A stretch of DNA of 42,686 nt, taken from IMG/VR virus record IMGVR_UViG_3300043443_000105, positions 1 to 42,686 of that record. One strand, written 5' to 3'. A model generated the notes under the pieces. It was not told the origin of the DNA. It did no database searches and saw nothing but the letters and a program-made list of their open reading frames with translations. Each line of letters begins with the position of its first letter. Within the stretch, counting starts at the first letter, position 1. This DNA is from a virus (lineage: Duplodnaviria > Caudoviricetes). A program made the position numbers and the translations under genes. Below, piece after piece: positions 21,551 to 40,277 of this stretch.

Positions 21551-21578
21551 AAAACAAAAAGGGGGGATTTCTCCCCCC
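21551..21578 (-). terminator. Rho-independent terminator after the major capsid gene
   Basis: GGGGGGA-GAAA-TCCCCCC followed by TTTTTGTTTT on the minus strand. Confidence 0.9.
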
Positions 21579-21583
21579 GATTT

Positions 21584-22489: not shown

Positions 22490-22500
22490 TTTTAAGCTCC

Positions 22501-23127: not shown

Positions 23128-23148
23128 AATAAATCTCCTAAATTAAAA

Positions 23149-23601: not shown

Positions 23602-23602
23602 G

Positions 23603-24604: not shown

Positions 24605-24615
24605 GTCCAGCCTCC

Positions 24616-25026: not shown

Positions 25027-25210
25027 CGTCCGAGTTCTCCAATTTACGTTTTAGGTCTAATATTTCCTGCTTTGCGAAGAGCAGACCCTTAATCTCACCA
25101 CAAACTCTTTGGTATTCAGAATAGTCTTTAGCTTGTCCGCTGCCTATCCAATCCTGTTTACTTGTTATTTCTTTGTCTAGCATGTCCACTAGAACATCAG
25201 AAGCATCCAT
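25019..25210 (-). CDS. small conserved protein after the portal gene
   Basis: 63 aa, DYSEYQRVCGEIKGL; coupled to the portal stop. Confidence 0.7.
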   Translation of the reverse strand: MDASDVLVDMLDKEITSKQDWIGSGQAKDYSEYQRVCGEIKGLLFAKQEILDLKRKLENSDDE

Positions 25211-27648
25211 TACTGTCCTTTCCCACTAGATTTATTAGGTTTCATAACGTCTAACACTTCCTTCATTACTAACTTCTCACGCTCGTCACGCATTTCTGCG
25301 GCTACTTTTAACATCTCATTCTTAGTCTGAGACTCGATCCGCTTGTTCTCAGTAGCAATCTGAGCAGCCTTGAGCTGGGCATCAGCCATGTCTTTCTGTG
25401 CCTTGCGTTGCTGATCTGCTTCCTTGATAGCCACTTCACGCTGCTGTAACTGGAGCATCGGATCTTGAGCTTGCTGCATAGCTTGCTGTTGTGCAGCTTG
25501 TGCCTGGTTCTGTTGTAGAACTTGCTGGGCTGCTTGTGCAAGTAGTGGTGCCAACTTAGATTCAAGAGCTGGGTCCATCGGATTCTCTTCGCCCGACTCA
25601 TCGTACTGAGCAGGTAACTGAATACCAAGACGCTTCTCAATCTCAATCCGATACTGCATACCCAAGTGCTCAGCAATATGCGCCTGCATGGCAGCCTGCA
25701 TCTGTGGTGCCTGTGGGTTGTTCTGCAATAACTGAATAATCATCGGATCCTGTATAGCAGCTGTGTGTACTTGAATATGTGCTTTGTGATCCTGATATGA
25801 AAACGCCTTGGTAGGTTTAAGCATCAGTACATCTTGGTTCTCTGTAACTGGATCCTTGGGTCTCATATCCTCTGGTAGAGGTACAAGCTTCTGCGCATCC
25901 TTAATACTGAGTACGTCTAGCATCTGACGATACAACAATGGCATATTAAATAAGTTTGGTGACTGTGCTGCAAGCTGCATTACTGCTTGGTATTGAACAA
26001 TCTTCTGTGCCATTGTTGAAGCGTTAGGATCACTAACAGGGATGACGTCCACATCATCGTAGTCAGACTTCTTAGCAAATCTGGATCCTTCATCTGGCTC
26101 ATAGCTGTACTCCTCTGGTGTGTATTCAGCAATAATCTTCTTCAGTAACTTCAACTCTTGCTTTAAGCTGTAGTGAATGCGAGCTTGTACAGCAGACATC
26201 ACTTTGAGCGTACGCTCTAGGATAGCTAGCGTAGTACCTACTGGTGCTTGTGAAGACATGTCACTGATCTGTAGATCAGCAGTATTTGCAAAGCGACGAC
26301 CTTCTTCCACAATTTGATTGAGCAACGTCATTAATACTTGGCTTGGCTCTTTGTATGGAAGAGGCAGGATGTTGTCACGCATCGTGCCACTAGGTACGTC
26401 TACATCACGGAACTCTCCCGGTGCTATCGGGGTGTCATCGCCCCTAATTCGCAAGCCACGGGCCTTAAAGCCGCCTGGCAGGTTGCTAAGGGTTCCAGCA
26501 TCCACGAGCTGCCGAATAAGACTAGTACCAGACTTAGCAAAAGCACCGATAAGGTGAATAAGCCCAAAGTAATAAAAGCCAAAGCCCGGAACGTATCCAT
26601 AATGGACAAAATGTTGACGCTTTTGACAAGTTTCATCATTCGGGTCCCAATTACGTCTAATAGATAGAACATTTTGTGTACCTTTCTCGATAGTGACTAC
26701 GTAAGGTAGTGCAATACCGGTGGGTTTACCGTCTTCGTCCTTGTGCTCGTACCCAGGAATATCTAAGTTGACGTGCATCTCAAGGAGTTTGTAGCGGTCA
26801 TCTGTTGTTGCTCTAAAGCCAAGCTTCTCGGCAATCTTCTTCTCTACTTCGTCCATTACATTGACAGGATCACCTAAGTCAATGTCACGATAGAAACCTG
26901 ATACTTGTAGCTTGCGTAACTCGTTCTCATTCTTGCGCATGACGTGTGTAACACGCTCAGCAGCTTCAAGTGACGGTGCGCCGTAGGGCACGACCATATC
27001 TTCTGCTGGTACAAACATAGCCACTTGACGCTCTAAGTTAGGGTCAAAGTACACTTTCTTAAACGCATTACCAGCTAGACCCAAGCCCCAGAGCATACGC
27101 TCTGTCTCAGGACGATACTCAGGCATCATCTCGGTCAACTGATAGTTCATGTCCTCACGTACACGCTCAGACGCATCTTTCTTCTCAGGTGTCTCTTTAC
27201 CAACGACCAATGTTTTTACAGGACCTGCAGCGGGGAAGATAGACATCATGGTCTCTGCCTGGAACTTAACTAGCGCCTCAGAAAGTAAGGGGTGGTATAC
27301 ACCGCATGCGCCTTCCCAAGGTTCAGAGCGCTCTTCAATCTTCAAACCAAGTAACTCAAGACCATCTACATAAGTCTGTATCCAATCTTTGCGAGCACCA
27401 ATGTCAGAATCAAAGTCAGCAACCAAATCACCACAAATTTCTGTAAGGGTGCCTTCATCAATGTACTCTGCTAAGTTAGCATTGAAGTCATCCTCGGACT
27501 CTTTTTCTGGCTCAATCTGTATTTCTAAGCCATCTATGCCAATAGTGACTGACTCAGGATCCTCAATCTCGATCTCTATCGGACTCTCCATCGCAGCTGC
27601 TTCTTCTATGCCTACTGGAGCTTGATACAGTGCCTTATCTATTGCCAT
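25210..27648 (-). CDS. portal protein (P22-like, long C-terminal coiled-coil barrel)
   Basis: 812 aa following terL; GNAFKKVYFD, PGFGFYYFGL and a Q-rich helical C-terminus. Confidence 0.85.
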   Translation of the reverse strand: MAIDKALYQAPVGIEEAAAMESPIEIEIEDPESVTIGIDGLEIQIEPEKESEDDFNANLAEYIDEGTLTEICGDLVADFDSDIGARKDWIQTYVDGLELLGLKIEERSEPWEGACGVYHPLLSEALVKFQAETMMSIFPAAGPVKTLVVGKETPEKKDASERVREDMNYQLTEMMPEYRPETERMLWGLGLAGNAFKKVYFDPNLERQVAMFVPAEDMVVPYGAPSLEAAERVTHVMRKNENELRKLQVSGFYRDIDLGDPVNVMDEVEKKIAEKLGFRATTDDRYKLLEMHVNLDIPGYEHKDEDGKPTGIALPYVVTIEKGTQNVLSIRRNWDPNDETCQKRQHFVHYGYVPGFGFYYFGLIHLIGAFAKSGTSLIRQLVDAGTLSNLPGGFKARGLRIRGDDTPIAPGEFRDVDVPSGTMRDNILPLPYKEPSQVLMTLLNQIVEEGRRFANTADLQISDMSSQAPVGTTLAILERTLKVMSAVQARIHYSLKQELKLLKKIIAEYTPEEYSYEPDEGSRFAKKSDYDDVDVIPVSDPNASTMAQKIVQYQAVMQLAAQSPNLFNMPLLYRQMLDVLSIKDAQKLVPLPEDMRPKDPVTENQDVLMLKPTKAFSYQDHKAHIQVHTAAIQDPMIIQLLQNNPQAPQMQAAMQAHIAEHLGMQYRIEIEKRLGIQLPAQYDESGEENPMDPALESKLAPLLAQAAQQVLQQNQAQAAQQQAMQQAQDPMLQLQQREVAIKEADQQRKAQKDMADAQLKAAQIATENKRIESQTKNEMLKVAAEMRDEREKLVMKEVLDVMKPNKSSGKGQ

Positions 27649-27657: not shown

Positions 27658-29211
27658 TTAATAATATCCTTTGAACCGTTTAGACTTAAATAGTCTGATT
27701 TCATCTGGCTCATCGTTAGGTAATTTAATAAACCCGCCTTGTCTAAAGCGCATTAGCGCCATCACCGTTGAGTCAACTAAGTCATCATGGCTCATAAACG
27801 GAAATCCTGCAATCTCTTCTACTACTTCTTCAGCCCAACGTGTCTCGGGCACCCATACTAGACCACTTTTAACAATATCAGCAACGGAATTGAGCCTAGC
27901 AAGCTTATCACCACTACCCCTATGGGGGGTGTACTCTATGACGGGCATCCCAGTACGCCGTAATTCTTGATATAACGCTGTACCAGCACTCTTTTTCTCC
28001 ACAATGAACGCATCAGGGTTCCATTCGTGCCACTCGCTCCACGCTAAATCCTTTAATTCTGGAAATTCTAATCTTTTCTTAATAGAATTCAACAAAATAA
28101 TGCTGTGGCAGTCCATTTCTTCGTTAAAAAACACCCCCCAAACCGTTATTGCAGTAAAGTCTGCCCTATTATGCGTCTCTGCAGCGGCGTCTAAGGACAT
28201 AATCACGTATTCGCAGGACGGCGGGGTTTCTTGCTTCCACCACTTCCACCATTCTCGCTTGACAACGCTAGCTTCTTCGGCTGTGGGGTTTTGCTGGTAC
28301 TGAGCGTTCCACTGGAACACAGGCATAGAAGCCTTAGTTTGACGCAAAGAGGCCAATGACAGCCATTCAGGCCACAAAGCTGCTTCTTGATCTGTTCCTT
28401 CATTAAAAATCGCTGGAAATTCGACAAGTTCATACTGGTCTGCCTCTTCGTTCTGGACCATATCACGGACAACCTTACCTGTTAGGTCATCTTGGTGCCA
28501 TCTAGTCTGTACGATAGCAACTCTTCCGCCTGGCATCAAGCGTGTTCTTGCTCCGTAGGTGAACCATTCATACGCTTTCTCGAATACATCGAAGTTCCCA
28601 TTGATGATGTCCTGCTCGTTATGGGGGTCGTCCACCAATAGTAGATCAGCTCCACGACCAGCAAGGGCAGAACCCACACCACAAGCAAAATACTCACCAC
28701 CAACATTAGTATTCCAACGCCCAGCAGACTTATTATCTTGCGCCAGACTGACAGTAGGAAAAATTTGTTTATATATGGGTGTGTCAATTAGGTTCCTCAC
28801 TTTCCGTCCAAAGTCCACAGCAAGATCGGTCGTGTGGGAGACCATTAAAACCTTTTTATCAGGGTATTTTCCAAGGAACCATGCAGGAAAATAGATAGAA
28901 ACAAGCTGGGATTTACCGTGCCGTGGGGGTATGTTGACCGCAATTCGGTTCTTTTTACCCTCAGCAATCTCCATAAGGAGGTTTGCCAACCTGCGGTGAT
29001 GCTCGCCAACTTTATAGTCTGACTGCATTATTTGACAAAACGCTATTAAATCTTCTCTAGCAGCCTTAGCCTCTTTGCGCCTGTTCATTTCATCAATAAC
29101 AAGCTCTGTTTCTTCAGCGTCTATCTCATCAAACTGGTCCAAATTGTCCAGTAAGAACTGTAATTCAGCGTCCGTTAGGTCTTCAAGCGGGTTTAGGGTC
29201 GCTGTCGTCAT
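27658..29211 (-). CDS. terL: terminase large subunit
   Basis: Walker A PPRHGKS, Walker B LLLVDDP, TRWH motif, and nuclease motifs SLD / HDDLVD. Confidence 0.95.
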   Translation of the reverse strand: MTTATLNPLEDLTDAELQFLLDNLDQFDEIDAEETELVIDEMNRRKEAKAAREDLIAFCQIMQSDYKVGEHHRRLANLLMEIAEGKKNRIAVNIPPRHGKSQLVSIYFPAWFLGKYPDKKVLMVSHTTDLAVDFGRKVRNLIDTPIYKQIFPTVSLAQDNKSAGRWNTNVGGEYFACGVGSALAGRGADLLLVDDPHNEQDIINGNFDVFEKAYEWFTYGARTRLMPGGRVAIVQTRWHQDDLTGKVVRDMVQNEEADQYELVEFPAIFNEGTDQEAALWPEWLSLASLRQTKASMPVFQWNAQYQQNPTAEEASVVKREWWKWWKQETPPSCEYVIMSLDAAAETHNRADFTAITVWGVFFNEEMDCHSIILLNSIKKRLEFPELKDLAWSEWHEWNPDAFIVEKKSAGTALYQELRRTGMPVIEYTPHRGSGDKLARLNSVADIVKSGLVWVPETRWAEEVVEEIAGFPFMSHDDLVDSTVMALMRFRQGGFIKLPNDEPDEIRLFKSKRFKGYY

Positions 29212-29851
29212 CTTTTTTTGTCTCGGCTGCGGTATTTTGGACTTCTTGGACTTCTTCTTTGTCCTCCTCTATACCCATTTCTTTGTCTACGTCGATAGTT
29301 TCCCCATTTATCTCTACCGCTTTTACGTCCTCTACCCCCTGTGGGTGCATGAGTTTTTGTATCTTAGAGCGCAAACTGTCCATCAGTTCTTTGTTTGACC
29401 GGTGGTTAATAGTAACCTCGGACTTCTCGGTAAATAAGCCTACATCGGTAATCTTACCCAGCAGTTCTAAGGCACGGATACGGATCTTGGCATCCTCATT
29501 AACAGACTCAAGTAGTAACTTATTTGTTACCAATAACCTAATCTGCAGTGCGTTATCTACTACCTTTGTGGAAAACTCTTTCAGAATGTCATTGACTGCG
29601 TAATATGTCGCAGGTTTTATGGTTGATGCTTTTTTCGTGGTTATTTTGGTATTTACTTTGTCTTCGTTCTTAGCGACTTCATAGACAATAGTCTCCGCTA
29701 CCGCCATGTCTTCATCGGTCGGGGTAGTATCAAGCTCCAGTAATTCTGCCGTGCGGCATGCCGCTTCAGCTCTTTCCCTGAAGTTTGCTAGCACCGGATT
29801 GTCTTCCGGGAACGGTATTGCCAAGTCTGGCTCTACATTTATTTGTTGCAT
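29183..29851 (-). CDS. terS: putative terminase small subunit
   Basis: Immediately upstream of and overlapping terL; IRIRALELLGK..VGLFTE motif. Confidence 0.7.
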   Translation of the reverse strand: MQQINVEPDLAIPFPEDNPVLANFRERAEAACRTAELLELDTTPTDEDMAVAETIVYEVAKNEDKVNTKITTKKASTIKPATYYAVNDILKEFSTKVVDNALQIRLLVTNKLLLESVNEDAKIRIRALELLGKITDVGLFTEKSEVTINHRSNKELMDSLRSKIQKLMHPQGVEDVKAVEINGETIDVDKEMGIEEDKEEVQEVQNTAAETKKDDDSDPKPA

Positions 29852-29899
29852 CAATTCCTGTCCGAATTAGATGTTGTTAGGCGAAGTATATATTAAAAA

Positions 29900-29972
29900 T
29901 TGGTGAGAAGGGTGAAGACCGTATGTATGTGAAGCATGCCGGCAATCCCTTGCAAGATTTACCCTCACCCAA
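29900..29972 (-). ncRNA. putative structured RNA (three-way junction) upstream of terS
   Basis: Closing stem GGUGAG-GGU/ACC-CUU-CUCACC, hairpin AAUCUU-GCAA-GGGAUU (GNRA loop) and stem GCCG/CGGU. Confidence 0.45.
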
Positions 29973-29979
29973 CCCGTAG

Positions 29980-30017
29980 AAAAGAAAGGAGGGAAGCCCC
30001 GGTAGAAGACTTCCCCC
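29980..30017 (-). terminator. Rho-independent terminator in the late leader
   Basis: GGGGGAAGUCUU-CUACC-GGGGCUUCCCUC followed by CUUUCUUUU. The G-U pairs work only on the minus strand. Confidence 0.7.
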
Positions 30018-30064
30018 TAAGTACCACTTAACAAGGAAACGGCAATGAACAAGCCGTATAGACA

Positions 30065-30190
30065 GTATATAACAATTTTTTAGGCTAGGTACTTAAAAAA
30101 CATGACGGGGGGTGTTTCTACATGGCGCCGATTTTTGTCTGGAAAAAACTTGTATGGGGGGTGGTATATATTTTTTGGGCTAGGTACTTA
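30065..30190 (-). promoter_or_regulatory. tandem putative leftward (late) promoters
   Basis: 20-bp repeat TTTTTT(A/G)GGCTAGGTACTTA at 30076 and 30171, each next to GTATATA (minus-strand TATATAC). A third GTATATA is at 29886. Confidence 0.5.
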
Positions 30191-30323
30191 GGCAATGTAC
30201 CGGGGGCCAATTTGAAAAAGTGAGCTATGAGGATGCGGAATAGCAAACCACAAGCCGACGGAGAGGCTCAATACAATTTTGGGGGGTGGGGTGTCGCTAA
30301 ATCGCTAGGCAAAATCGGCTTTG

Positions 30324-30339
30324 CGTCTAACGTTAGACG
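30324..30339. promoter_or_regulatory. palindrome CGTCTAACGTTAGACG, copy 1
   Basis: Perfect 16-bp palindrome. Confidence 0.9.
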
Positions 30340-30349
30340 AAATTATCTA

Positions 30350-30379
30350 TTGTCAAACACTATCAAATTCTATTAAACT
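30350..30379 (+). promoter_or_regulatory. putative sigma70 promoter
   Basis: TTGTCA-18-TAAACT upstream of the first early gene. Confidence 0.45.
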
Positions 30380-30432
30380 TTAGTTAATGGTTCGGGGCGC
30401 TTTGCTTACGACATTATTTGAAAGGTATCAAA

Positions 30433-31026
30433 ATGAAAAACGTTAAATCTGCTGTATCTGCTATCAGTCAAGTTAGCAAAACCCTTGCTAATACTGAGCC
30501 AGTCGCTAACCCTTATGCTTTGAATAGCGAAGTAATCAATTCTATTCAGACATGGTCTGGTCTTAGCAAACAAGCCAGCGAGGCGGGTGATCGCTTAGTT
30601 GACGTGCTGATTGCTAATAAGGTTAAGCCTACTCAATTCGTCGCTTTCAATGAGAGCGAAGATAAACAAGGCATGCGCTTTAGAGATGAAGTATTCAGCC
30701 ACATTGTTAAGGGTTGGGGCGATAAGGTCGCTGAGAAATTGGTTTACGCTGATCCTAAGACATTATCAGTAAGCGAGCAGGCTCAACAGGTTGTTTTGCG
30801 TGATATGGCTCGCAAGGCTTACAACAATCTCAAGGCTCAGTTAATCCGTCGCATTGAAAAGGGTGATAAGGTAAGCAAATCAGCACCCGCAAGCAAATCG
30901 ATATTGGCTCAACGTGCCGTTAAGCAAGCCATTAAGTATCTTGAAGAAAACAAGTCAGGATATGCTGGCATGCCTGAAGATATTAAGGCTCTCAAGGGCT
31001 TAGTAGTTCTTAAGGTTATCAAGTAA
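30433..31026 (+). CDS. hypothetical first early protein
   Basis: ATG after AAAGGT; about 197 aa, helical; followed by a terminator. Confidence 0.75.
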   Translation: MKNVKSAVSAISQVSKTLANTEPVANPYALNSEVINSIQTWSGLSKQASEAGDRLVDVLIANKVKPTQFVAFNESEDKQGMRFRDEVFSHIVKGWGDKVAEKLVYADPKTLSVSEQAQQVVLRDMARKAYNNLKAQLIRRIEKGDKVSKSAPASKSILAQRAVKQAIKYLEENKSGYAGMPEDIKALKGLVVLKVIK

Positions 31027-31033
31027 TCATTAT

Positions 31034-31060
31034 GCCCCCCGATTTGGGGGGCTTTTTTTT
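31034..31060 (+). terminator. Rho-independent terminator
   Basis: GCCCCCC-GATTT-GGGGGGC followed by T8. Confidence 0.9.
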
Positions 31061-31070
31061 CGGGGGTTTT

Positions 31071-31214
31071 ATGGTTATCAAACGTAAATCAATGCTTTAT
31101 AAGTTACTTAATGCTTTACCTTATCGTTTTTGCTTTTACCAAATCTGGAATGTTAGAGTAGGTAATGACCTAACATCTTATGCCAAGATTACTTTTGGCT
31201 TTCCCTCGTATTAA
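31071..31214 (+). CDS. small hypothetical protein (47 aa)
   Basis: ATG after GGGGGT; lies between two terminators. Confidence 0.45.
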   Translation: MVIKRKSMLYKLLNALPYRFCFYQIWNVRVGNDLTSYAKITFGFPSY

Positions 31215-31217
31215 CTT

Positions 31218-31243
31218 AACCCGCCTTTTGGCGGGTTTTTTTT
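31218..31243 (+). terminator. Rho-independent terminator
   Basis: AACCCGCC-TTTT-GGCGGGTT followed by a T tract. Confidence 0.9.
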
Positions 31244-31257
31244 CGTCTAAATTTTTT

Positions 31258-31386
31258 ATGATGCCAGTGACTAGGAGAAGCGGATCGTTGTGCGGTTCGC
31301 CGTGCGGTAAATTCGGCTTAACAACTTATTCCTATGTTTGCGTCTAACGTTAGACGAAATGATGCCAGTGACTAGGAGAAGCGGAT
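31258..31386 (+). repeat. 28-bp perfect direct repeat, 2 copies
   Basis: ATGATGCCAGTGACTAGGAGAAGCGGAT at 31258-31285 and 31359-31386. Confidence 0.9.
31341..31356. promoter_or_regulatory. palindrome copy 2
   Basis: CGTCTAACGTTAGACG. Confidence 0.9.
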
Positions 31387-31415
31387 AGCGACGGGTTAAA
31401 TTTGTTTTGTTTTTG

Positions 31416-31439
31416 TTTTAACCTGCTAGCAGGTTAAAA
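31416..31439. repeat. perfect 24-bp palindrome
   Basis: TTTTAACCTGCTAGCAGGTTAAAA. Confidence 0.9.
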
Positions 31440-31490
31440 GTATTTTCTGAGTTTGTCAAGGCATATTTGCATAGGGGTTTACCCTGCTAT

Positions 31491-31734
31491 TGTTCCGAAT
31501 GTTCCGTAATGTTCTGCCCTATTGTTCCTATTGATCCTATTGATTTATAAGGAAAAAGTTGTATTGTTCCTTTTGTTCCGCCAATTTTAGAGTATGAATC
31601 CAAAAACATACCAAAATCTCTTCTGCAAGGGACTGAGGGAATCTCTCGCAGGGTCGCTTCATAATCTCTATCAACTACTCCATATGGAACAATACTTATA
31701 TATCAATAACTTACAAAGGAACAATACAAGAACA
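31491..31734. other. putative replication origin (inverted TGTTCC/GGAACA iterons, IHF-like site)
   Basis: TGTTCC at 31491, 31500, 31523, 31565 and 31574; GGAACA at 31686 and 31718; TATCAATAACTTA at 31701. Confidence 0.45.
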
Positions 31735-31797
31735 AATAAAGACATTATAGACACTACACTCTTTAATAGAGTCTGATACTCTTTGATAGCCAAAACC

Positions 31798-31850
31798 TTG
31801 ACCTTGGGGTCTATATCGCTTAAAATATATATAGTGGTAAAAAAGTTGTA
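31798..31850 (+). promoter_or_regulatory. sigma70 early promoter with conserved downstream element
   Basis: TTGACC-17-TAAAAT, then ATATATAGTGGTAAAAAAGTTGTA. Confidence 0.75.
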
Positions 31851-31875
31851 GCGCAGGTGGCAGTTCCAAACCTTG

Positions 31876-31891
31876 CGTCTAACGTTAGACG
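31876..31891. promoter_or_regulatory. palindrome copy 3
   Basis: CGTCTAACGTTAGACG. Confidence 0.9.
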
Positions 31892-31945
31892 AATTTACCA
31901 CTTGACGTAGATTTACCCACTTAACATCTTAACAGGAGAATTACT

Positions 31946-32140
31946 ATGGCATCAGTACGCATTCTTAACCCAATGGTTTACGGCAAGATCAAACTACTAG
32001 CACCAATCGTTAACCCCGATACTCATAGAGTCATGTACGACACTAACGCTATTTTGTCGTGGAACGATTTTGTCAAATTGCTTTCGCTTGGCATTGAGAA
32101 GATCGACATTGAACCTGCACAGGAGGGGGTGACAGTATGA
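31946..32140 (+). CDS. hypothetical protein
   Basis: 64 aa; TTAACAGGAGAA RBS. Confidence 0.7.
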   Translation: MASVRILNPMVYGKIKLLAPIVNPDTHRVMYDTNAILSWNDFVKLLSLGIEKIDIEPAQEGVTV

Positions 32141-32349
32141 CCAAATTCATACCACGTTGTAAGTTGTGTGGTGAACCATATGACGTAGCCCGTATGAAGT
32201 TGGGTTATGCCATATGTATGCCATGCGGTGAGGAGGTAGCCAAGGAACGTAAGTTCACCATAGCACCAATGCACAAAAGCAATTACGTGGCGATCTTTGA
32301 TCGCTCGGATCTAGTCGGGTTGAACAACAAGGGAGGGTTAGTTAAATGA
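32137..32349 (+). CDS. DksA/TraR-type C4 zinc-finger protein
   Basis: CKLCGEPYDVARMKLGYAICMPC. Confidence 0.6.
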   Translation: MTKFIPRCKLCGEPYDVARMKLGYAICMPCGEEVAKERKFTIAPMHKSNYVAIFDRSDLVGLNNKGGLVK

Positions 32350-32492
32350 TGACCGAAAAAGAAGTACAGGCATTGATAAGCCTGTTGTTGTACATAGACA
32401 ACGATGGGTGGAAGTACAGGGATTCGGACAGATTGGTTGAGATCCTGTCTGATTATGTTAAAGGGTTGTATTCAACGGGGAACATCAAATGA
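32346..32492 (+). CDS. small hypothetical protein (48 aa)
   Basis: Hand-translated MMTEKEVQALISLLLYID...; ATGA overlaps at both ends. Confidence 0.55.
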   Translation: MMTEKEVQALISLLLYIDNDGWKYRDSDRLVEILSDYVKGLYSTGNIK

Positions 32493-32704
32493 GCAAAAGC
32501 AAAGTGAAAACCATGTCAGGTGAGGACACCTTATTCATGCTTGAGGCAATCCTAGCGGTTGCGGGTACAGACGAGACCAAGGCGCAGTTCATGCTTGACC
32601 CTCGGAAGTCAGCACGTCTCATCATGATTAGGCAGTTATACGGCAAAGATGTTATGGAACAAACCATTGATAAGTTAAAGGAGGTTGTATATGAGCAAGA
32701 CTAA
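32489..32704 (+). CDS. hypothetical protein
   Basis: 71 aa, translationally coupled. Confidence 0.6.
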   Translation: MSKSKVKTMSGEDTLFMLEAILAVAGTDETKAQFMLDPRKSARLIMIRQLYGKDVMEQTIDKLKEVVYEQD

Positions 32705-32978
32705 AGATACTAGACCCGTAATTAAAACGGGGATCGTAGTAGAAGGGGTAGACATGCGGACTTATCGCAGTACGGAGAATCCTCGCCATGTAGCGGGGGT
32801 GACGTATCGCTCGGTCAACGAAGCATTCAAGGGTTGGGAGTATGCCTGTGCGATAGAGAAGCACAAGTCAGATCTCAGGCACGGACTCGAATGGTTCAGC
32901 GAGTTGTTTATGTTTTTCTTTTGGATTGGTGCGGGTTTATCTTTGCCAATTTTGTTTGTGCTGTGGTTGTTTAGATAA
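32691..32978 (+). CDS. hypothetical membrane protein
   Basis: AGGAGG RBS; C-terminal TM helix. Confidence 0.65.
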   Translation: MSKTKDTRPVIKTGIVVEGVDMRTYRSTENPRHVAGVTYRSVNEAFKGWEYACAIEKHKSDLRHGLEWFSELFMFFFWIGAGLSLPILFVLWLFR

Positions 32979-32987
32979 GGGGGGATC

Positions 32988-33140
32988 GTGAATACAGGAC
33001 AGATCAAACGCATAGGAAAAAGAACTTACTGTGTGGTTGCTTGGACGAACACGGATGTAACCCTGCAAAGTATGGACGAGGAGAAGTTAATCCTAGTCAT
33101 ACCACGTACTCGCATGGGTGGTCTGAAAACTGGACAGTAG
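32988..33140 (+). CDS. small hypothetical protein (50 aa)
   Basis: GTG after AAGGGGGG; hand-translated. Confidence 0.5.
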   Translation: MNTGQIKRIGKRTYCVVAWTNTDVTLQSMDEEKLILVIPRTRMGGLKTGQ

Positions 33141-33185
33141 TGGTAAACTTTAGTAAAATATAATATATAGTGGTAAGAAGTTGTA
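33131..33185 (+). promoter_or_regulatory. sigma70 early promoter with conserved downstream element
   Basis: TGGACA-17-TAAAAT, then ATATATAGTGGTAAGAAGTTGTA. Confidence 0.7.
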
Positions 33186-33223
33186 AGGCGTAGTAAATGT
33201 CATTAACTTAACAGGAGAAAAAC

Positions 33224-34135
33224 ATGACAACAAGTAATCAAGAAGTTGCGTCTAACGTTAGCCGAGAGTTCCACGTTGACGTGGGTAGCGTACCCAGTAT
33301 CAGCAGTAGTGCCATGCTCGTGGAGTTGAACATCAGCACATGGACAGGGCGCAAGTTTGACAAACAAGTTAGTGCCGAGATCGACGTGCAGAAGAATACC
33401 CAGACTAGGGCGGGTAACTATCACAAGAAGTTGTTTGCAGACGAACCGCAGTTTGAGGCAATAGCCAAGTATGCGGGTAATGCACGGACATACCACTACT
33501 ATGCCACGATGCCATGGTCGGACTCAGGGCTTAGGTTGTTAACCACTGCTATGTACTTTGACTATCAGAAACGGGTCACGGACATTGAGCAGGAGTTCAC
33601 CAAGTTAGTGGGTGAATTCATTGGGGACTATGACAACATGGTGGCAAGAGCGCAGGGTAAATTGGGTGCGTTGTTCAATGCCGAGGACTATCCGAGCAAG
33701 GACGAGATCTTGGAGAAGTACAAGTTTTCAGTCAAGTATTCGCCTGTACCCTCGGTAGGAGATTGGCGAGTCGACATTGGGAATGACGCACAGCAACAAC
33801 TTAACATGAGTTATGCCAAGGCATATGTGGATAACCTACAACAAGCGTTGGCTGAACCATGGGAACGCATGCACGAGGCGCTTAAGAACATGAGCGAGAG
33901 ACTAGCGGGTGAGAAGAAGCAGATCTTCCGAGACTCTTTGGTCACAAACGTCATGGACATGTGCAAGTTATTGGACAAGTTCAATGTGACAGGCGATGCC
34001 CGCATGAAGCAAGCACGTCTACGCATAGAGAACATCTTGATGGGAGTCACCCCCGATGCACTACGGGAGGACGACGACTTACGTCACGATACCAAGAGCA
34101 AGGTAGATGCACTGCTCAAAGAGATGTCATGGTAA
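33224..34135 (+). CDS. DUF3150-like protein
   Basis: SAMLVELNISTWTGRKFD..TMPWSDSGLRLL..LFNAEDYP, next to AAA and vWA genes. Family recalled, not searched. Confidence 0.55.
   Translation: MTTSNQEVASNVSREFHVDVGSVPSISSSAMLVELNISTWTGRKFDKQVSAEIDVQKNTQTRAGNYHKKLFADEPQFEAIAKYAGNARTYHYYATMPWSDSGLRLLTTAMYFDYQKRVTDIEQEFTKLVGEFIGDYDNMVARAQGKLGALFNAEDYPSKDEILEKYKFSVKYSPVPSVGDWRVDIGNDAQQQLNMSYAKAYVDNLQQALAEPWERMHEALKNMSERLAGEKKQIFRDSLVTNVMDMCKLLDKFNVTGDARMKQARLRIENILMGVTPDALREDDDLRHDTKSKVDALLKEMSW
33249..33264. promoter_or_regulatory. palindrome copy 4 (1 mismatch, intragenic)
   Basis: CGTCTAACGTTAGCCG. Confidence 0.8.
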
Positions 34136-34137
34136 TC

Positions 34138-34153
34138 CGTCTAACGTTAGACA
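34138..34153. promoter_or_regulatory. palindrome copy 5
   Basis: CGTCTAACGTTAGACA, intergenic. Confidence 0.85.
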
Positions 34154-34177
34154 CAACTTTTTAACAGGAGAAACAAA

Positions 34178-35290
34178 ATGAAACAAACCGCAGATCAATT
34201 ATTTTCACAATCCCTTGACGAGGTAGTCGAGTCGATTCTAGCGAATCCCGATGGTACTGTATTGGTACAGGGTCACATGGGTACAGGTAAATCTTCTATC
34301 CTTAAGATCTTGGCAGAGAAACTGCCCGATCATGTGCCGTGCTACTTTGACTGTACTACCAAGGACTTGGGCGATCTCATGCTACCTAAGATCCTACGGG
34401 ACGACAGTACCCAAGACTACGTTAAGTTTGTACCTAACGAGGAGATGGGTCTCCACCATGGCAAGCCAATCATCTTAATGATTGACGAGTTTGGTAAGGC
34501 GAATCCCGCAGTCAAGAACGGCATGATGCGTGTGATGCTCGAACGTGCCTTTGGTACAGACAAGATACCCAAGGGGTCTATCATATTTGCCACCACTAAT
34601 CTTGGTGGTGAGGGTGTTGGTGACTTACTCATGCCACATCACCGCAATCGTATTACTGTGGTGCGTATGAAGAAACCTACGGCAGTAGATTGGATAGAGG
34701 GGTATGCCTTCAACGCAGGGATACATCCTGCCATGATCTTATGGGTCAAGGAGGAGGGTGCGAGATTGTTCCAGTCGTATGAAGAGGTGGACAATCCTGA
34801 CGATCAGGTATCGGGTAATCCGTATATCTATCATCCCAAGTCGCAGAGACCTGCCTTTGTTACCCCAAGATCTTTGGAGTTGGCAAGTCGTTGGCTATGG
34901 GCTAAGGACAAGATCAGCGACAACGCATTGAAGTCTAACCTGATGGGTACTATCGGGGATCGTGCGGGTGCAGACCTTGGCGCATACATCAAACTTGTTG
35001 ACGAGTTACCCAAGCAAGACGAGATCAAGGCAGATCCTAAATCAGCCAAGATTCCTACAACATCTTCAGCCGTTGTGATGGTGGTGTATCGTGCCTTGGC
35101 TACCATGAGCAAGGAGTTTGTTGACCCATGGATGGAGTATCTGAACCGCTTGGACAAGGAGGCGCAGTCATTGTTTGCTATGCAGGTGCGCAATCCCAAG
35201 TACAACAAGCAAGGTGTTGTCATGACCAATAAGAAGTTTACACAATGGTGTATGGACAACAACTTCATGTTCAGCGCAGATAAGAAGTAA
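34178..35290 (+). CDS. AAA+ ATPase (MoxR/dynein-related clade)
   Basis: Walker A GHMGTGKS, Walker B ILMIDEFG, ATTN sensor 1 and TPRS sensor 2. Confidence 0.85.
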   Translation: MKQTADQLFSQSLDEVVESILANPDGTVLVQGHMGTGKSSILKILAEKLPDHVPCYFDCTTKDLGDLMLPKILRDDSTQDYVKFVPNEEMGLHHGKPIILMIDEFGKANPAVKNGMMRVMLERAFGTDKIPKGSIIFATTNLGGEGVGDLLMPHHRNRITVVRMKKPTAVDWIEGYAFNAGIHPAMILWVKEEGARLFQSYEEVDNPDDQVSGNPYIYHPKSQRPAFVTPRSLELASRWLWAKDKISDNALKSNLMGTIGDRAGADLGAYIKLVDELPKQDEIKADPKSAKIPTTSSAVVMVVYRALATMSKEFVDPWMEYLNRLDKEAQSLFAMQVRNPKYNKQGVVMTNKKFTQWCMDNNFMFSADKK

Positions 35291-35299
35291 GGGGGAGAT

Positions 35300-35413
35300 A
35301 TGTGCGACTTTGATTATTTGAAGTTCGGGTTATTTCTAATCGTGGTAGTGCCTGTATTGTCCATGACTTTTTTATTGGTATATGCGGGTTGGAAAATTAT
35401 AAGGAGTGAATGA
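35300..35413 (+). CDS. small membrane peptide (37 aa)
   Basis: GGGGGAG RBS; MCDFDYLKFGLFLIVVVPVLSMTFLLVYAGWKIIRSE. Confidence 0.5.
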   Translation: MCDFDYLKFGLFLIVVVPVLSMTFLLVYAGWKIIRSE

Positions 35414-36588
35414 TGCTAACAATCGGTAAACAACTTACCGCAGAGCAACGCATGTACAAGGCAACGACAGACTTGATAGGTTGTGACGAGTTTGTCGCCT
35501 TGGCAGGTGTTCTCATGGTCGGTAGTAAGAAAGTGGTGGACGATAAGATCACCGCATGCACTAATGGTCGTGACGAGAAGTATGGTCGTGGGTTTGTTGA
35601 TAGTCTCAATGATGCCGAGTTTAGATTTCTTATGCTACATGAGTGCTATCACAAGATGTATCGTCATCTAACAACGTGGCAAGATCTTCACAAGATAGAC
35701 CATGATCGTGCCAATCGTGCGTGTGATTACGTCATTAACCATAAACTTGTGCATTCTGAATCAGGCAAGTCAGGTTGGATCAAGATGCCTGATGGTGGGT
35801 GCTATGACGATAAGTACAAGGACATGAATGCCAAAGAAGTTTTCGACTTACTTGAGTCGCAAGATCAAGAAGGTCAAGGTCAAGGTCAGGGAACTGGCTT
35901 CGACGATCATGACTGGGAGGGGGCGCAGGAATTGTCCGATGAGGAACAGGAGAAACTCGCTAAAGAAATTGACGAGGCAGTACGTCAAGGCGCAGTCTTA
36001 GCGGGTAAGGTCGGGTCGGGTGGTAATCGAGACTTGACTGAACTCTTAGAACCTAAGAAGGATTGGCGAGAACTATTGCGTGAGTATGTTAAGACAACAT
36101 GTTCGGGCAAGGATTACTCAACGTGGCGCAAACCTAATCGTAGATATGTTGGCATGGACTTGTTGATGCCAAGTGCGATTAGCGAGGCTATGGGTGAGAT
36201 CGTGGTTGCTATTGATACGTCAGGATCTATTGGTCAGCGTGAACTGAACAACTTCCTAGGCGAGATCAAAGGTATCTGTGAACAAGTTAAGCCAAGCAAG
36301 GTGCATGTAATGTACTGGGATACAGCGATATGCCGTACAGAAGTGTACATGCAGGACGAACTCGACAACTTGGTGAAGTCTACTAAACCCGCAGGGGGTG
36401 GTGGGACTGATCCATCATGCGTACCACAATATCTTAACGAGAAAGGTATCAAGCCTGAGTGCGTGGTGATGCTAACCGATGGCTATGTCGGCGGTTGGGG
36501 TCAATGGTCTGTGCCTGTGTTGTGGTGCATCTTAAACAATCGGTCTGCAAACCCAAGCGTGGGTGTAGCAGTTCATATTGACGGCTAA
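35410..36588 (+). CDS. HExxH metallopeptidase-like plus vWA domain protein (DUF2201-like)
   Basis: TACTNG, HECYH, and MIDAS DTSGS..GGGTD..LTDGY. Confidence 0.85.
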   Translation: MMLTIGKQLTAEQRMYKATTDLIGCDEFVALAGVLMVGSKKVVDDKITACTNGRDEKYGRGFVDSLNDAEFRFLMLHECYHKMYRHLTTWQDLHKIDHDRANRACDYVINHKLVHSESGKSGWIKMPDGGCYDDKYKDMNAKEVFDLLESQDQEGQGQGQGTGFDDHDWEGAQELSDEEQEKLAKEIDEAVRQGAVLAGKVGSGGNRDLTELLEPKKDWRELLREYVKTTCSGKDYSTWRKPNRRYVGMDLLMPSAISEAMGEIVVAIDTSGSIGQRELNNFLGEIKGICEQVKPSKVHVMYWDTAICRTEVYMQDELDNLVKSTKPAGGGGTDPSCVPQYLNEKGIKPECVVMLTDGYVGGWGQWSVPVLWCILNNRSANPSVGVAVHIDG

Positions 36589-36597
36589 CGTTAGACA
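36582..36597. promoter_or_regulatory. palindrome copy 6 (overlaps stop codon)
   Basis: CGGCTAACGTTAGACA. Confidence 0.8.
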
Positions 36598-36607
36598 GGA
36601 GAATGAA

Positions 36608-36697
36608 ATGATGAGTGATATGTTGCAGGAAATTTTTGTCTTGGCTGTGGTAGTTATCGCCACATGCCAAGTTATTAAATTGTTTAAGGGAGATTGA
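36608..36697 (+). CDS. small membrane peptide (29 aa)
   Basis: AGGAGA RBS; MMSDMLQEIFVLAVVVIATCQVIKLFKGD. Confidence 0.5.
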   Translation: MMSDMLQEIFVLAVVVIATCQVIKLFKGD

Positions 36698-36698
36698 T

Positions 36699-36884
36699 AT
36701 GACTTTATCAGTTGCGGAAATGTACTTAGTAGTGTGGGCATCATTCATGACGCTTTTATATTTTATATCTAAGCACGATGCTAAGAACTTCAAGCAGTTC
36801 ACTATCTACAAGTTAAGACAAGTAGCAAAAGGGAAAGCCAAAGTCGTTGACGATGGCGAGAGTGTTCAAATTGTTGATTGTTAA
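36699..36884 (+). CDS. small membrane protein
   Basis: 61 aa with an N-terminal TM segment; GGGAG RBS. Confidence 0.6.
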   Translation: MTLSVAEMYLVVWASFMTLLYFISKHDAKNFKQFTIYKLRQVAKGKAKVVDDGESVQIVDC

Positions 36885-36896
36885 TAGGAGAATGAT

Positions 36897-38012
36897 ATGG
36901 CATGGAGTGAATCGGTAGATCCAAATTATCCTAACATCAGGATGGAGACGTATAAGAGTAGTAATGGGGAGTACAAAGGATATAACAGAACTCATTACTA
37001 CGATATGCCTACCCGTAAACATCTTGGTTGTATATATGAGGATAACGACGAAGGTGGTAAGACAACGCAGTTTCAACAAGTACTTGACAGACAGAAGGAG
37101 ATTATTGAAATGAACTCACGTTTTTGTAGTTTTGATAATGTAGCAAAGATGTATGAAGATATTAAGCCATTACGTGGTTTACGTAAGAGTGAAGACATTC
37201 GTCCAATATGGGCTAGACGTTACCATTGGAGACGAGTTGCCAAGATCAACGACAACAAGTATGTCTTACATGATGGTGACTACAAAGTAGGAAGAACTTT
37301 TGAGGAGTCGTGCGACCTTGCGCCTATTACATGGGAACGTAAGGCAGACGGCGATTACATGACAGTTCGTAATTGCCATGCACCATATTACTCAATGTCA
37401 CGTTATGCGTTTTTGTCTCAGGCTTTGCCAAGATCAATGTGGTTCAAGATCGACAACGGCAAACACTACATTGTGCAGGGTGACAAAGAGCATTATTTGG
37501 CTAAGTTCAAGGCGCACTACGATAGTAATGTAGGCAAGCACGTTGTTACAGAAGACATGACTATCACCTTCAAACATCTTGGTGGTACTGAGTTTGAACG
37601 TGTATCGGAGTTGTTGCCAATGAAAGTACGGCGCATGAACAAAGATCTTAAGGCGAAGTATGACCCCTTGATTAAAGATATGTGGGATTGGGCTTGTATG
37701 GTGCTACCGATTCTTGGTGAGACCATGCACGATTGGGATGTACGGAATGCTCATGCAGAAAAAGTGTCAGGTAGAAGTGCTTGGTATTGGGATAGAGAGA
37801 CTAGCGCTGAAAGAATTAGAGAGATCGTTGAAGATCCTGAACATGAGTTTCGTCTATCGTTAGTCGCAATAGCGTCTTGGACTGCGGGTGCGTTTGATAC
37901 TGGGTCTAAAGAGCACAAAAATAAGACGTTTGCCCCAAGCAAAGACGCATGCAGAGAGTTTAAGAAGGTCATGCGTAAGGTAATCGATATATCAGCAGTA
38001 GAGTTACGGTAA
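36897..38012 (+). CDS. hypothetical protein
   Basis: 371 aa; AGGAG RBS. A second strong in-frame start lies at 37110. Confidence 0.75.
   Translation: MAWSESVDPNYPNIRMETYKSSNGEYKGYNRTHYYDMPTRKHLGCIYEDNDEGGKTTQFQQVLDRQKEIIEMNSRFCSFDNVAKMYEDIKPLRGLRKSEDIRPIWARRYHWRRVAKINDNKYVLHDGDYKVGRTFEESCDLAPITWERKADGDYMTVRNCHAPYYSMSRYAFLSQALPRSMWFKIDNGKHYIVQGDKEHYLAKFKAHYDSNVGKHVVTEDMTITFKHLGGTEFERVSELLPMKVRRMNKDLKAKYDPLIKDMWDWACMVLPILGETMHDWDVRNAHAEKVSGRSAWYWDRETSAERIREIVEDPEHEFRLSLVAIASWTAGAFDTGSKEHKNKTFAPSKDACREFKKVMRKVIDISAVELR
37851..37866. promoter_or_regulatory. palindrome copy 7 (2 mismatches, intragenic)
   Basis: ttt-CGTCTATCGTTAGTCG-caa; the flanks match the reverse complement of copies 1-2. Confidence 0.65.
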
Positions 38013-38034
38013 ACAACTTAACAGGAGAATAGTA

Positions 38035-39024
38035 ATGACTAGAATACATAAGATGGCAGAGATAATGGACAATGCCAACATAAAGGCGAAAGTAGAACGT
38101 ACTGTGAGATCAGTACAGAACGATGGTTGGGAACATCAATTCCAAGGATCAGCAGTAGTCGAAGAACTGAAAAACTTCTTAACACAAGTTAGTTCGGTGA
38201 TGCCGAATGTAAAGTTCTACCCGTTTAACGACCAGACCATACACCACAATTTTCTTTGCAAGGAAAGTAATTCCATGCAGTTCAAACAAGTATTTGTGGT
38301 TAGTGATTGGTTTGTTTACACGGATGACTTCCCATATGAAATTGGTCGTCTAAGTTACAAAGATCACTCAGCAAAATCCAATGGTGAACTTACCTATGGT
38401 ATATACAGTCGCAAGATACAGAATGCCAAGTACCATACTGGGCGGGATCAGCACAACATGATGATGTCTAAAGATCTTAATAAAGCAATTAAGTTGGCTA
38501 AGACTTATCTGACCCCGTACTCTACCTATGAACTTGCCACAGCTTCTTATGAGGCGATACATCAACGAACATGTAAAGCTCTAGAAGATACTGCTAGAGG
38601 CATGCGGGTAGCCATAGAACCTATTAGGAACAATACAGATACCCTGATTGCGGAGATGATGCACCTTATTAAGCAGGGCGCTCAGTTCAGTACCGATGGA
38701 TTCAAGTCGGTGGCTAACCAAATAGAAGCAAAGGTCATGGCATACAAAGCCGAGGAGGAACGCAAGGTCAGCGCATTGTTTGTGCGTCTTTACAACATAG
38801 GGGAAGACACCTATGCCGATGTGCAAGAAGCGTCTAACGTTAGACACAATGCCTTTGCGGGTAAGGGTTTGAACGGATCATCTACCTTGACGTACAAAAT
38901 GTCGGATCTGCCTGAAGAAACTGCACATGCGGTGGCTTCTCTTAGTATCTTGGAGAGAGATCAATACGTGACAGGGGTCGGCATGAAGATTGACGAGCGT
39001 CACTTTTGGGTGGAGCGTGGCTAA
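38035..39024 (+). CDS. hypothetical protein
   Basis: 329 aa; TTAACAGGAGAA RBS. Confidence 0.8.
   Translation: MTRIHKMAEIMDNANIKAKVERTVRSVQNDGWEHQFQGSAVVEELKNFLTQVSSVMPNVKFYPFNDQTIHHNFLCKESNSMQFKQVFVVSDWFVYTDDFPYEIGRLSYKDHSAKSNGELTYGIYSRKIQNAKYHTGRDQHNMMMSKDLNKAIKLAKTYLTPYSTYELATASYEAIHQRTCKALEDTARGMRVAIEPIRNNTDTLIAEMMHLIKQGAQFSTDGFKSVANQIEAKVMAYKAEEERKVSALFVRLYNIGEDTYADVQEASNVRHNAFAGKGLNGSSTLTYKMSDLPEETAHAVASLSILERDQYVTGVGMKIDERHFWVERG
38831..38846. promoter_or_regulatory. palindrome copy 8 (intragenic)
   Basis: CGTCTAACGTTAGACA. Confidence 0.85.
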
Positions 39025-39025
39025 C

Positions 39026-39448
39026 ATGCACAACGAATACATAACCCCCCAAGCTAGGCGGGAGAGGGAACTTTACATTAGTATCTTTTGTGACTTATCT
39101 TATACCTTTATGGATAAGGTAAAACAAAGAGTTTCTGCCCCCGAAGAAGTAATCTTTTCTTACATTGAAAGAACCAAGAAAGAACCCATATATAGGATCT
39201 GTCTAAACTCAGACGGAAGCGCACAAACAACATGTTATGAGATGTTGGATGCTTTTTCTCCTGAGTTAAAAAGTTTCTATTCAAGTGTTGACGAAATGCC
39301 AAAATGGGTGCAAGATAGGATCGCCGTATTAATGTTACTCGACCCCAGTAAATTAAACCAAGAAGTCGAGAACGTTGGACGACGTATAAGTGATGATATA
39401 TTTTGGGTCTTCAAAGGAGAAGCAGATGGGGATGACCCCCGAAGCTAA
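39026..39448 (+). CDS. hypothetical protein
   Basis: ATG just after the upstream stop; its C-terminus resembles that of the upstream gene. Confidence 0.7.
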   Translation: MHNEYITPQARRERELYISIFCDLSYTFMDKVKQRVSAPEEVIFSYIERTKKEPIYRICLNSDGSAQTTCYEMLDAFSPELKSFYSSVDEMPKWVQDRIAVLMLLDPSKLNQEVENVGRRISDDIFWVFKGEADGDDPRS

Positions 39449-39752
39449 AGTAAAGAAAGCCGTGCGCCAAGTCCTTGATGGGCTTGGTGCCTACTATGTG
39501 ATGCCAGTGACAGGCGGATATGGGAGGCAGGGCGCACCTGATTTTTTGGTTTGCCTAAACGGGCAGTTCATAGGCATTGAAACCAAGGCAGGAAAAGGCA
39601 GACTAACCGCTTTACAAGAAATGAATCTTAAACAGATCATCGATGCGGGTGGTGTGTCTCTCGTCATAAGGGAAGACGACGTTAAATATCTTCCTAGTTT
39701 GTTATCAACAGGAGAAAGTAATGAAGAAGCGAAAGGTAAAACCGAGCAGTAA
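39426..39752 (+). CDS. VRR-NUC / Holliday-junction-resolvase-like PD-(D/E)xK nuclease
   Basis: TPEAKVK..GAPDFLVCLNGQFIGIETKAGKGRLTALQ..GG. Confidence 0.85.
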   Translation: MGMTPEAKVKKAVRQVLDGLGAYYVMPVTGGYGRQGAPDFLVCLNGQFIGIETKAGKGRLTALQEMNLKQIIDAGGVSLVIREDDVKYLPSLLSTGESNEEAKGKTEQ

Positions 39753-40137
39753 TGTAGCAAAGGTCTTAGACCTGATGAAAGCAGATGCCAAGGTATCTGT
39801 AAAAGAAATTGTTGAGAAGACAAATCTCAAGACTTCTAACGTCTATGCAATACGCAACTATATCAAGAAGCACGGGTTATTAAAGCCGTTGCCAATGACG
39901 GGTATAGCGCCAAAGGCGAAAGCACCAAGCGCTGAAAAAGAAATAACCAACTTACTCAAAGAGAATAGACAACTTACTGAGTGGACACAGATGTGGAAAC
40001 ATAGGTGCGACAAGTTAGATCAAGAATTAAAAGAAGCTAAGATTTTGTTTTTAGATCAATTAGCCGTAGTGCGTTACTTAGAAGCAAAACTTTTACAACT
40101 CGTCGAAGCAAAAATTAAAGAAAGGGATCAAGCATGA
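39721..40137 (+). CDS. putative HTH DNA-binding protein with coiled coil
   Basis: VSVKEIVEKTNLKTSNVYAIR is HTH-like; C-terminal coiled coil. Confidence 0.6.
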   Translation: MKKRKVKPSSNVAKVLDLMKADAKVSVKEIVEKTNLKTSNVYAIRNYIKKHGLLKPLPMTGIAPKAKAPSAEKEITNLLKENRQLTEWTQMWKHRCDKLDQELKEAKILFLDQLAVVRYLEAKLLQLVEAKIKERDQA

Positions 40138-40277
40138 AAAAGATCATTGCAATTGTTTGTCTAACATTAGCCACAACTAGCGTATTCGCTCAAGTTAAAT
40201 GCGAGTCTGATGGTCGTGGTGGTATGTGTTGTTGGGATACTAAAGTCAACGGACCTTGGAAACCTATTGGTTGCTGA
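40134..40277 (+). CDS. secreted Cys-rich mini-protein (47 aa)
   Basis: Signal peptide MKKIIAIVCLTLATTSVFA followed by QVKCESDGRGGMCCWDTKVNGPWKPIGC; ATGA overlap. Confidence 0.65.
   Translation: MKKIIAIVCLTLATTSVFAQVKCESDGRGGMCCWDTKVNGPWKPIGC
40158..40173. promoter_or_regulatory. palindrome copy 9 (degenerate, intragenic)
   Basis: TGTCTAACATTAGCCA. Confidence 0.5.

Follow-up and report, generated by a model that had tools for sequence, protein, structure and literature searches.

Which protein reads a palindrome that recurs about every 1.2 kb through the early region of a phage genome, inside genes as well as between them, and what does it do there? These questions are raised by the virus record IMGVR_UViG_3300043443_000105 (Caudoviricetes), a stretch of 42,686 bases that was analysed at full length and is referred to here as the window. 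The repeated word is the dyad GTCTAACGTTAGAC, which occurs in nine copies with 0–2 mismatches spanning positions 30325–40172. The reading that we favour, with a probability of about 0.5, is that the nine dyads bind a dimer of the first early protein (encoded at 30433–31026), which would act as a brake on early transcription in the manner of Cro and stoperator repressors and would silence late-arriving phages carrying the same word. The copies are located as follows.

30324–30339: dyad copy 1, perfect 16 bp; its centre precedes the -35 hexamer of the promoter of the first gene by 18 bp
31341–31356: dyad copy 2, perfect 16 bp
31876–31891: dyad copy 3, perfect 16 bp
33250–33263: dyad copy 4, 1 mismatch, codons 9–14 of the DUF3150-like gene 33224–34135
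34139–34152: dyad copy 5, in the gap that separates the DUF3150-like gene from the MoxR-type AAA ATPase gene 34178–35290
36583–36596: dyad copy 6, 1 mismatch, over the stop codon of the peptidase-VWA (DUF2201) gene 35410–36588 and adjoining a ribosome-binding site
37852–37865: dyad copy 7, 2 mismatches, within the coding sequence 36897–38012, at about codon 321
38832–38845: dyad copy 8, within the coding sequence 38035–39024, at about codon 268
40159–40172: dyad copy 9, 2 mismatches, the weakest, in a 47-codon open reading frame (ORF) absent from some strains

The 14-bp core is exact in the copies starting at 30325, 31342, 31877, 34139 and 38832, has one mismatch at 33250 and 36583 and two at 37852 and 40159; the perfect 16-bp form is restricted to copies 1–3. 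With up to three mismatches allowed, 11 matches were found compared with a shuffle mean of 1.58, and none of 100 shuffles reached 11. The inter-copy gaps measured 1017, 535, 1373, 889, 2444, 1269, 980 and 1327 bp (mean 1229), which is more even than random placement (coefficient of variation, CV, 0.43 versus 0.85; p 0.015). In the late arm (1–30000), the closest match to the word has three mismatches and is located at 2669. Three copies lie within long coding sequences (33224, 36897 and 38035) and a fourth within the 47-codon ORF at 40134, and copy 6 contains the stop codon of 35410–36588. An earlier note on this DNA had reported these positions and mismatch classes (its numbers are 1 lower, since it counted the 16-bp form), gaps of 0.5–2.4 kb averaging about 1.2 kb, four intragenic copies plus one stop-codon overlap, and the lack of any full copy in the late operon; all of this was borne out, the fourth of its intragenic copies being the one in the short ORF. 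The array is real and strongly selected.

A de novo dyad search, in which a palindrome was scored as repeated at p <1e-8, was performed on 80 related early regions centred on the DUF3150-like gene, the best 80 of 582 confirmed DUF3150 relatives. A repeated dyad was present in 71 of the 80 regions and in none of the 52 late-region controls. By eye, more than 20 clearly different words were counted, with arms of 6–9 bp and 0–3 free central bases, and different lineages use different words at homologous places. In the window phage and in G001–G007, the N-terminal codons (8–12) of the DUF3150-like gene spell the phage's own word, the peptide being rewritten to fit, and the start of the AAA gene likewise carries the own word in G001, G004 and G005. 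In G025, the ribosome-binding site sits in the free centre of the dyad. Judging from these sequences, selection on the intragenic copies acts at the DNA level. The two central dyad bases vary freely among close relatives, and one 1-mismatch variant is used in both orientations in the window (33250 and 36583), from which we infer a two-fold symmetric protein on duplex DNA. This supports the proposal of the earlier note that the copies are sites for a dimeric protein and not simple operators, as does the lack of a fixed distance to promoters described below.

The pair L442 and L443 illustrates how local the change of word is: several gene blocks are 93–99% identical at the DNA level, and the two sequences diverge abruptly at each dyad and at the first gene. 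Such sharp breaks, together with sites at gene junctions where strains differ, could be taken to mean that the dyads are hairpins or cassette borders, that is structures or recombination sites homogenised by gene conversion and read by no specific protein. We consider this very improbable, because the flanks of the copies are not homogenised, a hairpin needs no separate word for each lineage, sites within intact genes are not cassette borders, and the co-variation with a protein helix described below would be left unexplained. Two further arrays are recorded here as observations. In L110 (same record as L422; 6867–13242) the array is a mosaic in which three sites near the first gene and five distal sites differ in their outer arms and have in common only a GTAA-NN-TTAC core. 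G022, whose genome has 56% G+C, contains 29 copies of GTTTAAAC.

Our preferred reader, the first early protein, is encoded between copies 1 and 2 in the window, and its gene is bracketed by dyads in the relatives too. The features that concern it, and the gene used as a linkage control, are these.

30433–31026, plus strand: first early gene, 197 amino acids, all-helical, no Pfam or PHROG family, predicted dyad reader
30766–30843, plus strand: predicted recognition helix, codons 112–137, with Asn132 at 30826–30828
30350–30379, plus strand: sigma-70-like promoter of the first early gene, 9/12, a consensus match only
31034–31052, plus strand: terminator-like hairpin directly 3' of the first gene, with a second hairpin at 31218–31237
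29183–29854, minus strand: probable terminase small subunit gene (terS), by its position before TerL; linkage control

AlphaFold predicted a four-helix domain (residues 28–148; predicted local distance difference test score 95.8) that ends in the long helix holding residues 112–137, followed by a flexible linker and a C-terminal helical hairpin (150–197), which in this model is a plausible dimerisation module. The protein matched nothing in Pfam or PHROGs, none of 58 family members had a Pfam match, and a sequence search of the PDB returned only helical matches at chance level. Foldseek with both models found no match at E 0.001 in PDB or BFVD. The best VIA-align Z scores for the two models, 6.0 and 5.6, are at background level and argue neither for a known nor for a new fold. 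For the domain, tied rows at Z 5.2–5.6 included SASP–DNA (2z3x; root mean square deviation (rmsd) 2.5, 56 aligned) and sigma factors (9n9q, 3.7, 69; 3mzy, 2.7, 63), but also chorismate mutase and TRP channels. In the ESM Atlas a sub-threshold likeness to the phiC31 repressor c family PF25746 (0.79; 119/256 features) was seen, which is a lead only.

The evidence that singles out this protein is its co-variation with the word. Of 79 loci with a dyad, 67 have a homologue of the first protein, 5 are cut short and 7 have room for the gene but no match; one further locus lacked a control gene, and collapse at 90% identity left 55 loci. Across these 55, word similarity followed that of the whole first protein (partial rho 0.43 given DUF3150) and, more closely, that of helix 112–137 (0.51 given DUF3150 and 0.33 given the whole protein), while three other segments of the protein gave -0.08 to -0.05 given the whole protein. 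The control proteins AAA and TerS reached 0.14 and 0.04 (44 loci), and no comparable signal was obtained with TerS, TerL, AAA or DUF3150. Residue 132 pairs with the base that is third from the centre of the dyad, as judged in 52 loci with a call: Asn is found in 11 of 15 A-words, Lys or Arg in 16 of 20 C-words and Asp in 14 of 16 G-words. Residues 124 and 127 pair with the eighth base, with Gln in 21/27 and Gly in 26/27 of the loci that have T there. The excess mutual information of residue 132 was 1.02, compared with at most 0.65 among 1,867 control column–position pairs drawn from DUF3150, AAA, TerS and TerL (42 loci). In protein–DNA complexes Asn or Gln goes with adenine, Lys or Arg with guanine and Asp with cytosine, and the pairings seen on helix 112–137 match this standard chemistry. 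Binding of the dyads by the first early protein, which the earlier note had listed among its candidates, is therefore favoured and in our estimate quite probable, on the strength of co-variation; dimer formation and base reading by the helix are likewise deduced.

We propose the following course of events. The first early protein would be made first, accumulate and bind the array as a dimer, reading each half-site with one long helix (112–137). The occupied sites would then act as roadblocks or form loops and so lower the transcription of early genes. Any phage arriving later with a matching word would be shut down as it enters, so that a joint change of word and helix is rewarded, and escape from a neighbour's reader would drive the turnover of both. 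Given binding, early shut-off plus exclusion of same-word kin is, as a guess, slightly better than an even bet. Two promoter-like sites bear on this scheme.

31798–31826, plus strand: sigma-70-like promoter, 10/12, about 50 bp upstream of copy 3
33131–33159, plus strand: sigma-70-like promoter, 10/12, about 90 bp upstream of copy 4

Copies 3 and 4 thus lie 50–90 bp behind promoter-like sites, and the others are distributed at about one per kb through the transcribed early arm. These two strongest promoter-like sites (31798–31850 and 33131–33185) also have some 20 bases in common downstream of the -10 hexamer. The temperate phage phiC31 has conserved inverted repeats, dispersed over its early region, for its repressor c. 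In lambda, also temperate, the repressor Cro is made first from the earliest promoter and its operators overlap promoters, unlike the window dyads, which do not.

Several observations weigh against this scheme. The distance from the centre of copy 1 to the start of the -35 hexamer ranged from -47 to +87 bp in 42 of the 54 loci with a call; because no distance is fixed, copy 1 does not qualify as a classical operator or as a phased activator site. Systems of this type usually serve lysogenic immunity, for which there is no support here, as five of five complete relatives have neither integrase nor ParB: profiles for tyrosine integrase (PF00589) and ParB (PF02195) matched 0 of 5 relatives that are 97–100% complete, with positive controls and with serine integrases outside the profile search. 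Three A-word loci have Tyr and three C-word loci Asp at residue 132. The loci are related, and an independent-pairs tree test was not significant, although with at most seven pairs (p >=0.5) it was underpowered; for C with Lys or Arg, 3.5 independent pairs went the same way and 2.0 the other. When only distal sites were compared (38 loci), the helix gave 0.33 versus 0.18 for AAA, and 0.17 versus 0.14 given the whole protein. Readers that are 52–55% identical can go with the same word. The reader profile was unmatched in the 7 of 79 dyad loci with room, in clades of the G012, G016 and L019 type, and by the first gene of MinM2 and of more distant clades. Finally, G010 (a 45% complete fragment) shares the word and has no detectable reader homologue, and the unrelated phage G011 has nearly the same word and no shared protein; coincidence is plausible in both cases, because both were found by searching for the word.

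Could another protein read the sites, with the first gene merely linked to them? Physically, the first gene lies between copies 1 and 2, the tree-independent test is not significant, the middle of the giant LPD39 protein groups G001, G002, G006 and G007 apart from G003, G004 and G005, and the window phage's own replication arm and giant protein lie outside the window. Linkage, however, leaves unexplained a signal on one helix face with chemically sensible pairings, and the equally close TerS shows none. We therefore regard a reader of this kind, whether the helix-turn-helix (HTH) protein at 39721, the Xis-like HTH, one of the modules of the giant ejected protein or a protein of the host, as rather improbable. 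A column test across the shared proteins of 11 genomes did not single out a clear region. The individual candidates fared as follows.

39721–40137, plus strand: HTH-like plus coiled-coil protein, candidate binder, disfavoured

This protein, another candidate of the earlier note, was not borne out, as its HTH is missing in G004 and no such gene stands behind VRR-NUC in G010. TerS, the Xis-like HTH and the giant ejection protein followed the word less closely or not at all; the Xis-like HTH, which is encoded in the replication arm, follows the genome tree. A ParB- or KorB-type reader was rejected, as was the parS-like option of the earlier note: the first early protein, which has no Pfam family, lacks a ParB N-terminal CTPase domain, and PF02195 is absent from the five complete relatives. 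The note's suggestion of decoys for a host protein is also disfavoured, because the word differs between close relatives, even between the near-identical L442 and L443, and lacks enrichment in bacterial genomes. A decoy of the parS, matS or SlmA-site type would be expected to have its word in common with repeats in host chromosomes and with other phages of one host. The 16-bp word, searched in its exact form only, matched 11 times in the 596 billion bases of DNA from bacteria and archaea that were covered (185,579 species genomes). One of these is a piece of the window phage group, and no multi-copy chromosomal array was seen in the 6-kb surroundings of the 11 matches. In Parcubacteria (L327, 3002 and 4142) the palindrome lies within a duplicated in-frame insertion in uvrA.

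The first early protein, made from the kilobase that would enter first, might also read the dyads for a different end, namely DNA handling: drawing the early arm into the cell as a ratchet, looping or shielding it, or marking it as self against nucleases or defence systems. The geometry of the array is compatible with this. The window array is bounded by its divergent neighbour terS, the best copies lie nearest to terS with quality falling inwards, and many sites are far from promoters. The CV of the spacing was below random not only in the window but also in all 7 further genomes that were tested, with p <0.01 in 3 of these. Contig ends fall within 500 bp upstream of terS in 22 of 80 cases and downstream in 2 of 80, which is a weak hint of a genome end, and DNA-protecting SASP is among the weak fold ties (Z 5.6, rmsd 2.5, 56 aligned). 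On the other hand, one site per kb cannot coat DNA, the contig ends do not coincide at a single position, the SASP match is at background level and private words are left unexplained. Protection would moreover be needed genome-wide, yet the sites stop after 3–13 kb in most relatives: they span 3.4–12.6 kb behind terS in 11 of them (G002–G009, G012, G016 and G025); in G001 they cover about 9 kb, apart from a single weak outlier, and in the fragment G010 15.6 kb. DNA handling thus seems unlikely to us, and we retain the early brake as the preferred function.

The earlier note had placed the palindrome in the early region only. This stands for the window phage and its near family and fails for the kin at large, because genome-wide sites occur in G014 (8) and MinM2 (29 in 45 kb), and also in the unrelated phage G011 (27). 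In the cultured MinM2 (L138, OQ594354) the sites read CGGTTCAG-N-CTGAACCG and are denser in the early arm, and two copies flank the first early gene. G011 (L192–L194, a 59.7-kb record) has evenly spaced GTCYAACGTTRGAC sites (CV 0.48 versus 0.95) and no protein in common with the HTVC023P-like family of the window phage. No strong dyad array was detected in HTVC023P, in 50 kb of DSL-LC04 or in G013, G015, G018, G019, G021 and G024.

A second, one-strand element accompanies the dyads and is contained in a direct repeat.

31258–31285, plus strand: 28-bp direct repeat, first copy, containing the one-strand element TGAT(A/G)CCAGT
31359–31386, plus strand: second copy of the 28-bp direct repeat, directly next to dyad copy 2

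In 54 of 67 loci, 1–3 copies of TGAT(A/G)CCAGT, confined to one strand, follow the first gene; elsewhere in the genomes scanned the element is almost absent. It lies 1–10 bp from the preceding dyad in 35 of 82 measured distances, and its sequence stays constant while the dyad changes. It is a candidate origin iteron or packaging-type site. The reader could accordingly license its own DNA for replication or packaging beside this element, which would restrict use to genomes carrying the matching word. The constancy of the element next to a changing word would suit such a role, but only 1–2 of about 10 dyads adjoin it, and it is absent from G010, G012, G016, G025 and MinM2, all of which have dyad arrays; we hold licensing to be improbable. 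A broader reading, which is possible but which we doubt, takes the word as a lytic self/non-self barcode of phages that lack integrase. The first protein would then be a reader of new fold with a re-programmable one-helix code, and each lineage would keep a private word along its early arm. As parts of this same doubtful whole, the reader might shut down or keep out kin that co-infect the cell and might license the phage's own genome, perhaps at TGAT(A/G)CCAGT, and the genes between the words might recombine freely across lineages. A clade with other multi-copy words (L003, L005, L007, L011, L012, L017, L019, L021, L022, L027 and similar) keeps one exact GTCTAACGTTAGAC; it is a second conserved site just upstream of terS, about 150–190 bp beyond the terS match.

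The window phage is an uncultured HTVC023P-like podovirus whose TerL is 45–47% identical to those of the pelagiphages HTVC023P and HTVC027P and to those of DSL-LC04 and MinM2, and the sequencing runs containing its DNA are mostly labelled freshwater or aquatic. The first early protein is also encoded on a 59,790-base contig, so that about 17 kb of the phage, which probably hold the giant ejection gene and the replication arm, lie outside the window; of the genome of about 59.8 kb, the scanned DNA thus covers 42.7 kb, without the replication arm. Eight stretches beside close ejection-protein relatives, which cannot be assigned to the window lineage, contained no copy of the word. The early arm encodes DUF3150-like, MoxR-type AAA ATPase, DUF2201 peptidase-VWA and VRR-NUC-type nuclease proteins, the first three of which (33224–36588) form a conserved early module. 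The small ORFs 40134–40277 and 35291–35412 are absent from close strains. Loss of the former takes copy 9 away, and close strains without the latter have an extra copy at the AAA–VWA junction that fills the 2.4-kb gap. The gap between terS and copy 1 (29950–30300) is rich in G-runs and contains a 37-bp imperfect repeat (30075 and 30170), and related contigs often end nearby. The contigs, which by their nature could not do so, revealed no start or end of molecules. The giant LPD39 ejection-type protein (G002 20833–27564, L140 and homologues) has 1,866–2,593 amino acids in G001–G009, with a swappable middle that is a metallopeptidase-like HExxH module, an uncharacterised domain or, in G005, an ATPase-like insert. 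No Rfam family was found within the window.

How does the array compare with known systems? The stoperators of Cluster A mycobacteriophages (L5 type) are many dispersed sites at which the specificity of protein and site diverges and sets who excludes whom (PMC6550527, PMC4351075). The array likewise consists of many dispersed sites whose word, on the basis of co-variation, diverges with the candidate reader. In Cluster A, the bound repressor halts transcription elongation. Stoperators, however, are asymmetric and oriented, whereas the present sites are dyads with one variant in both orientations; Cluster A phages are temperate, with an integrase or parABS and an HTH repressor, whereas PF00589 and PF02195 are found in none of the five complete relatives and the candidate reader is the first early gene, of no known family. 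Cluster O mycobacteriophages carry 17-bp dyad repeats whose function is stated to be unknown and for which a dimeric binder is predicted (PMC4351075). These resemble the array in being free-centre dyads, partly intragenic (about a third in Cluster O) and mostly away from promoters, in a phage that is not obviously temperate. Cluster O has more than 30 copies of one word genome-wide and no named binder, in contrast to about 4–15 copies here, mostly in the early arm, where the family uses many words and the candidate reader has a code at residue level. KorB of plasmid RK2 acts at palindromic OB operators away from promoters and silences over long range (PMC11790492), which offers a model for repression from distant sites; it is a ParB-type CTPase clamp, and no ParB N-terminal domain is present in the candidate reader or in the five complete relatives. 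The examined text of the HTVC023P-type genome paper (PMC9599517) does not mention such an array. No description of this dyad–reader system was found in a search of the open-access literature.

The window array thus probably belongs with the dispersed operator arrays of phages, as a variant whose candidate reader falls into no known family and allows single-residue predictions. Dispersed dyads have been an open oddity since Cluster O, and here they come with a named candidate reader and dozens of natural reader–word pairs, which opens the question to direct testing. MinM2 (OQ594354) is a cultured, distant relative with a dyad array. If the proposed reading is true, an immunity-like arms race would be taking place among apparently lytic, abundant aquatic phages, and their first early protein would be a small all-helical DNA-binding scaffold with many orthogonal specificities.

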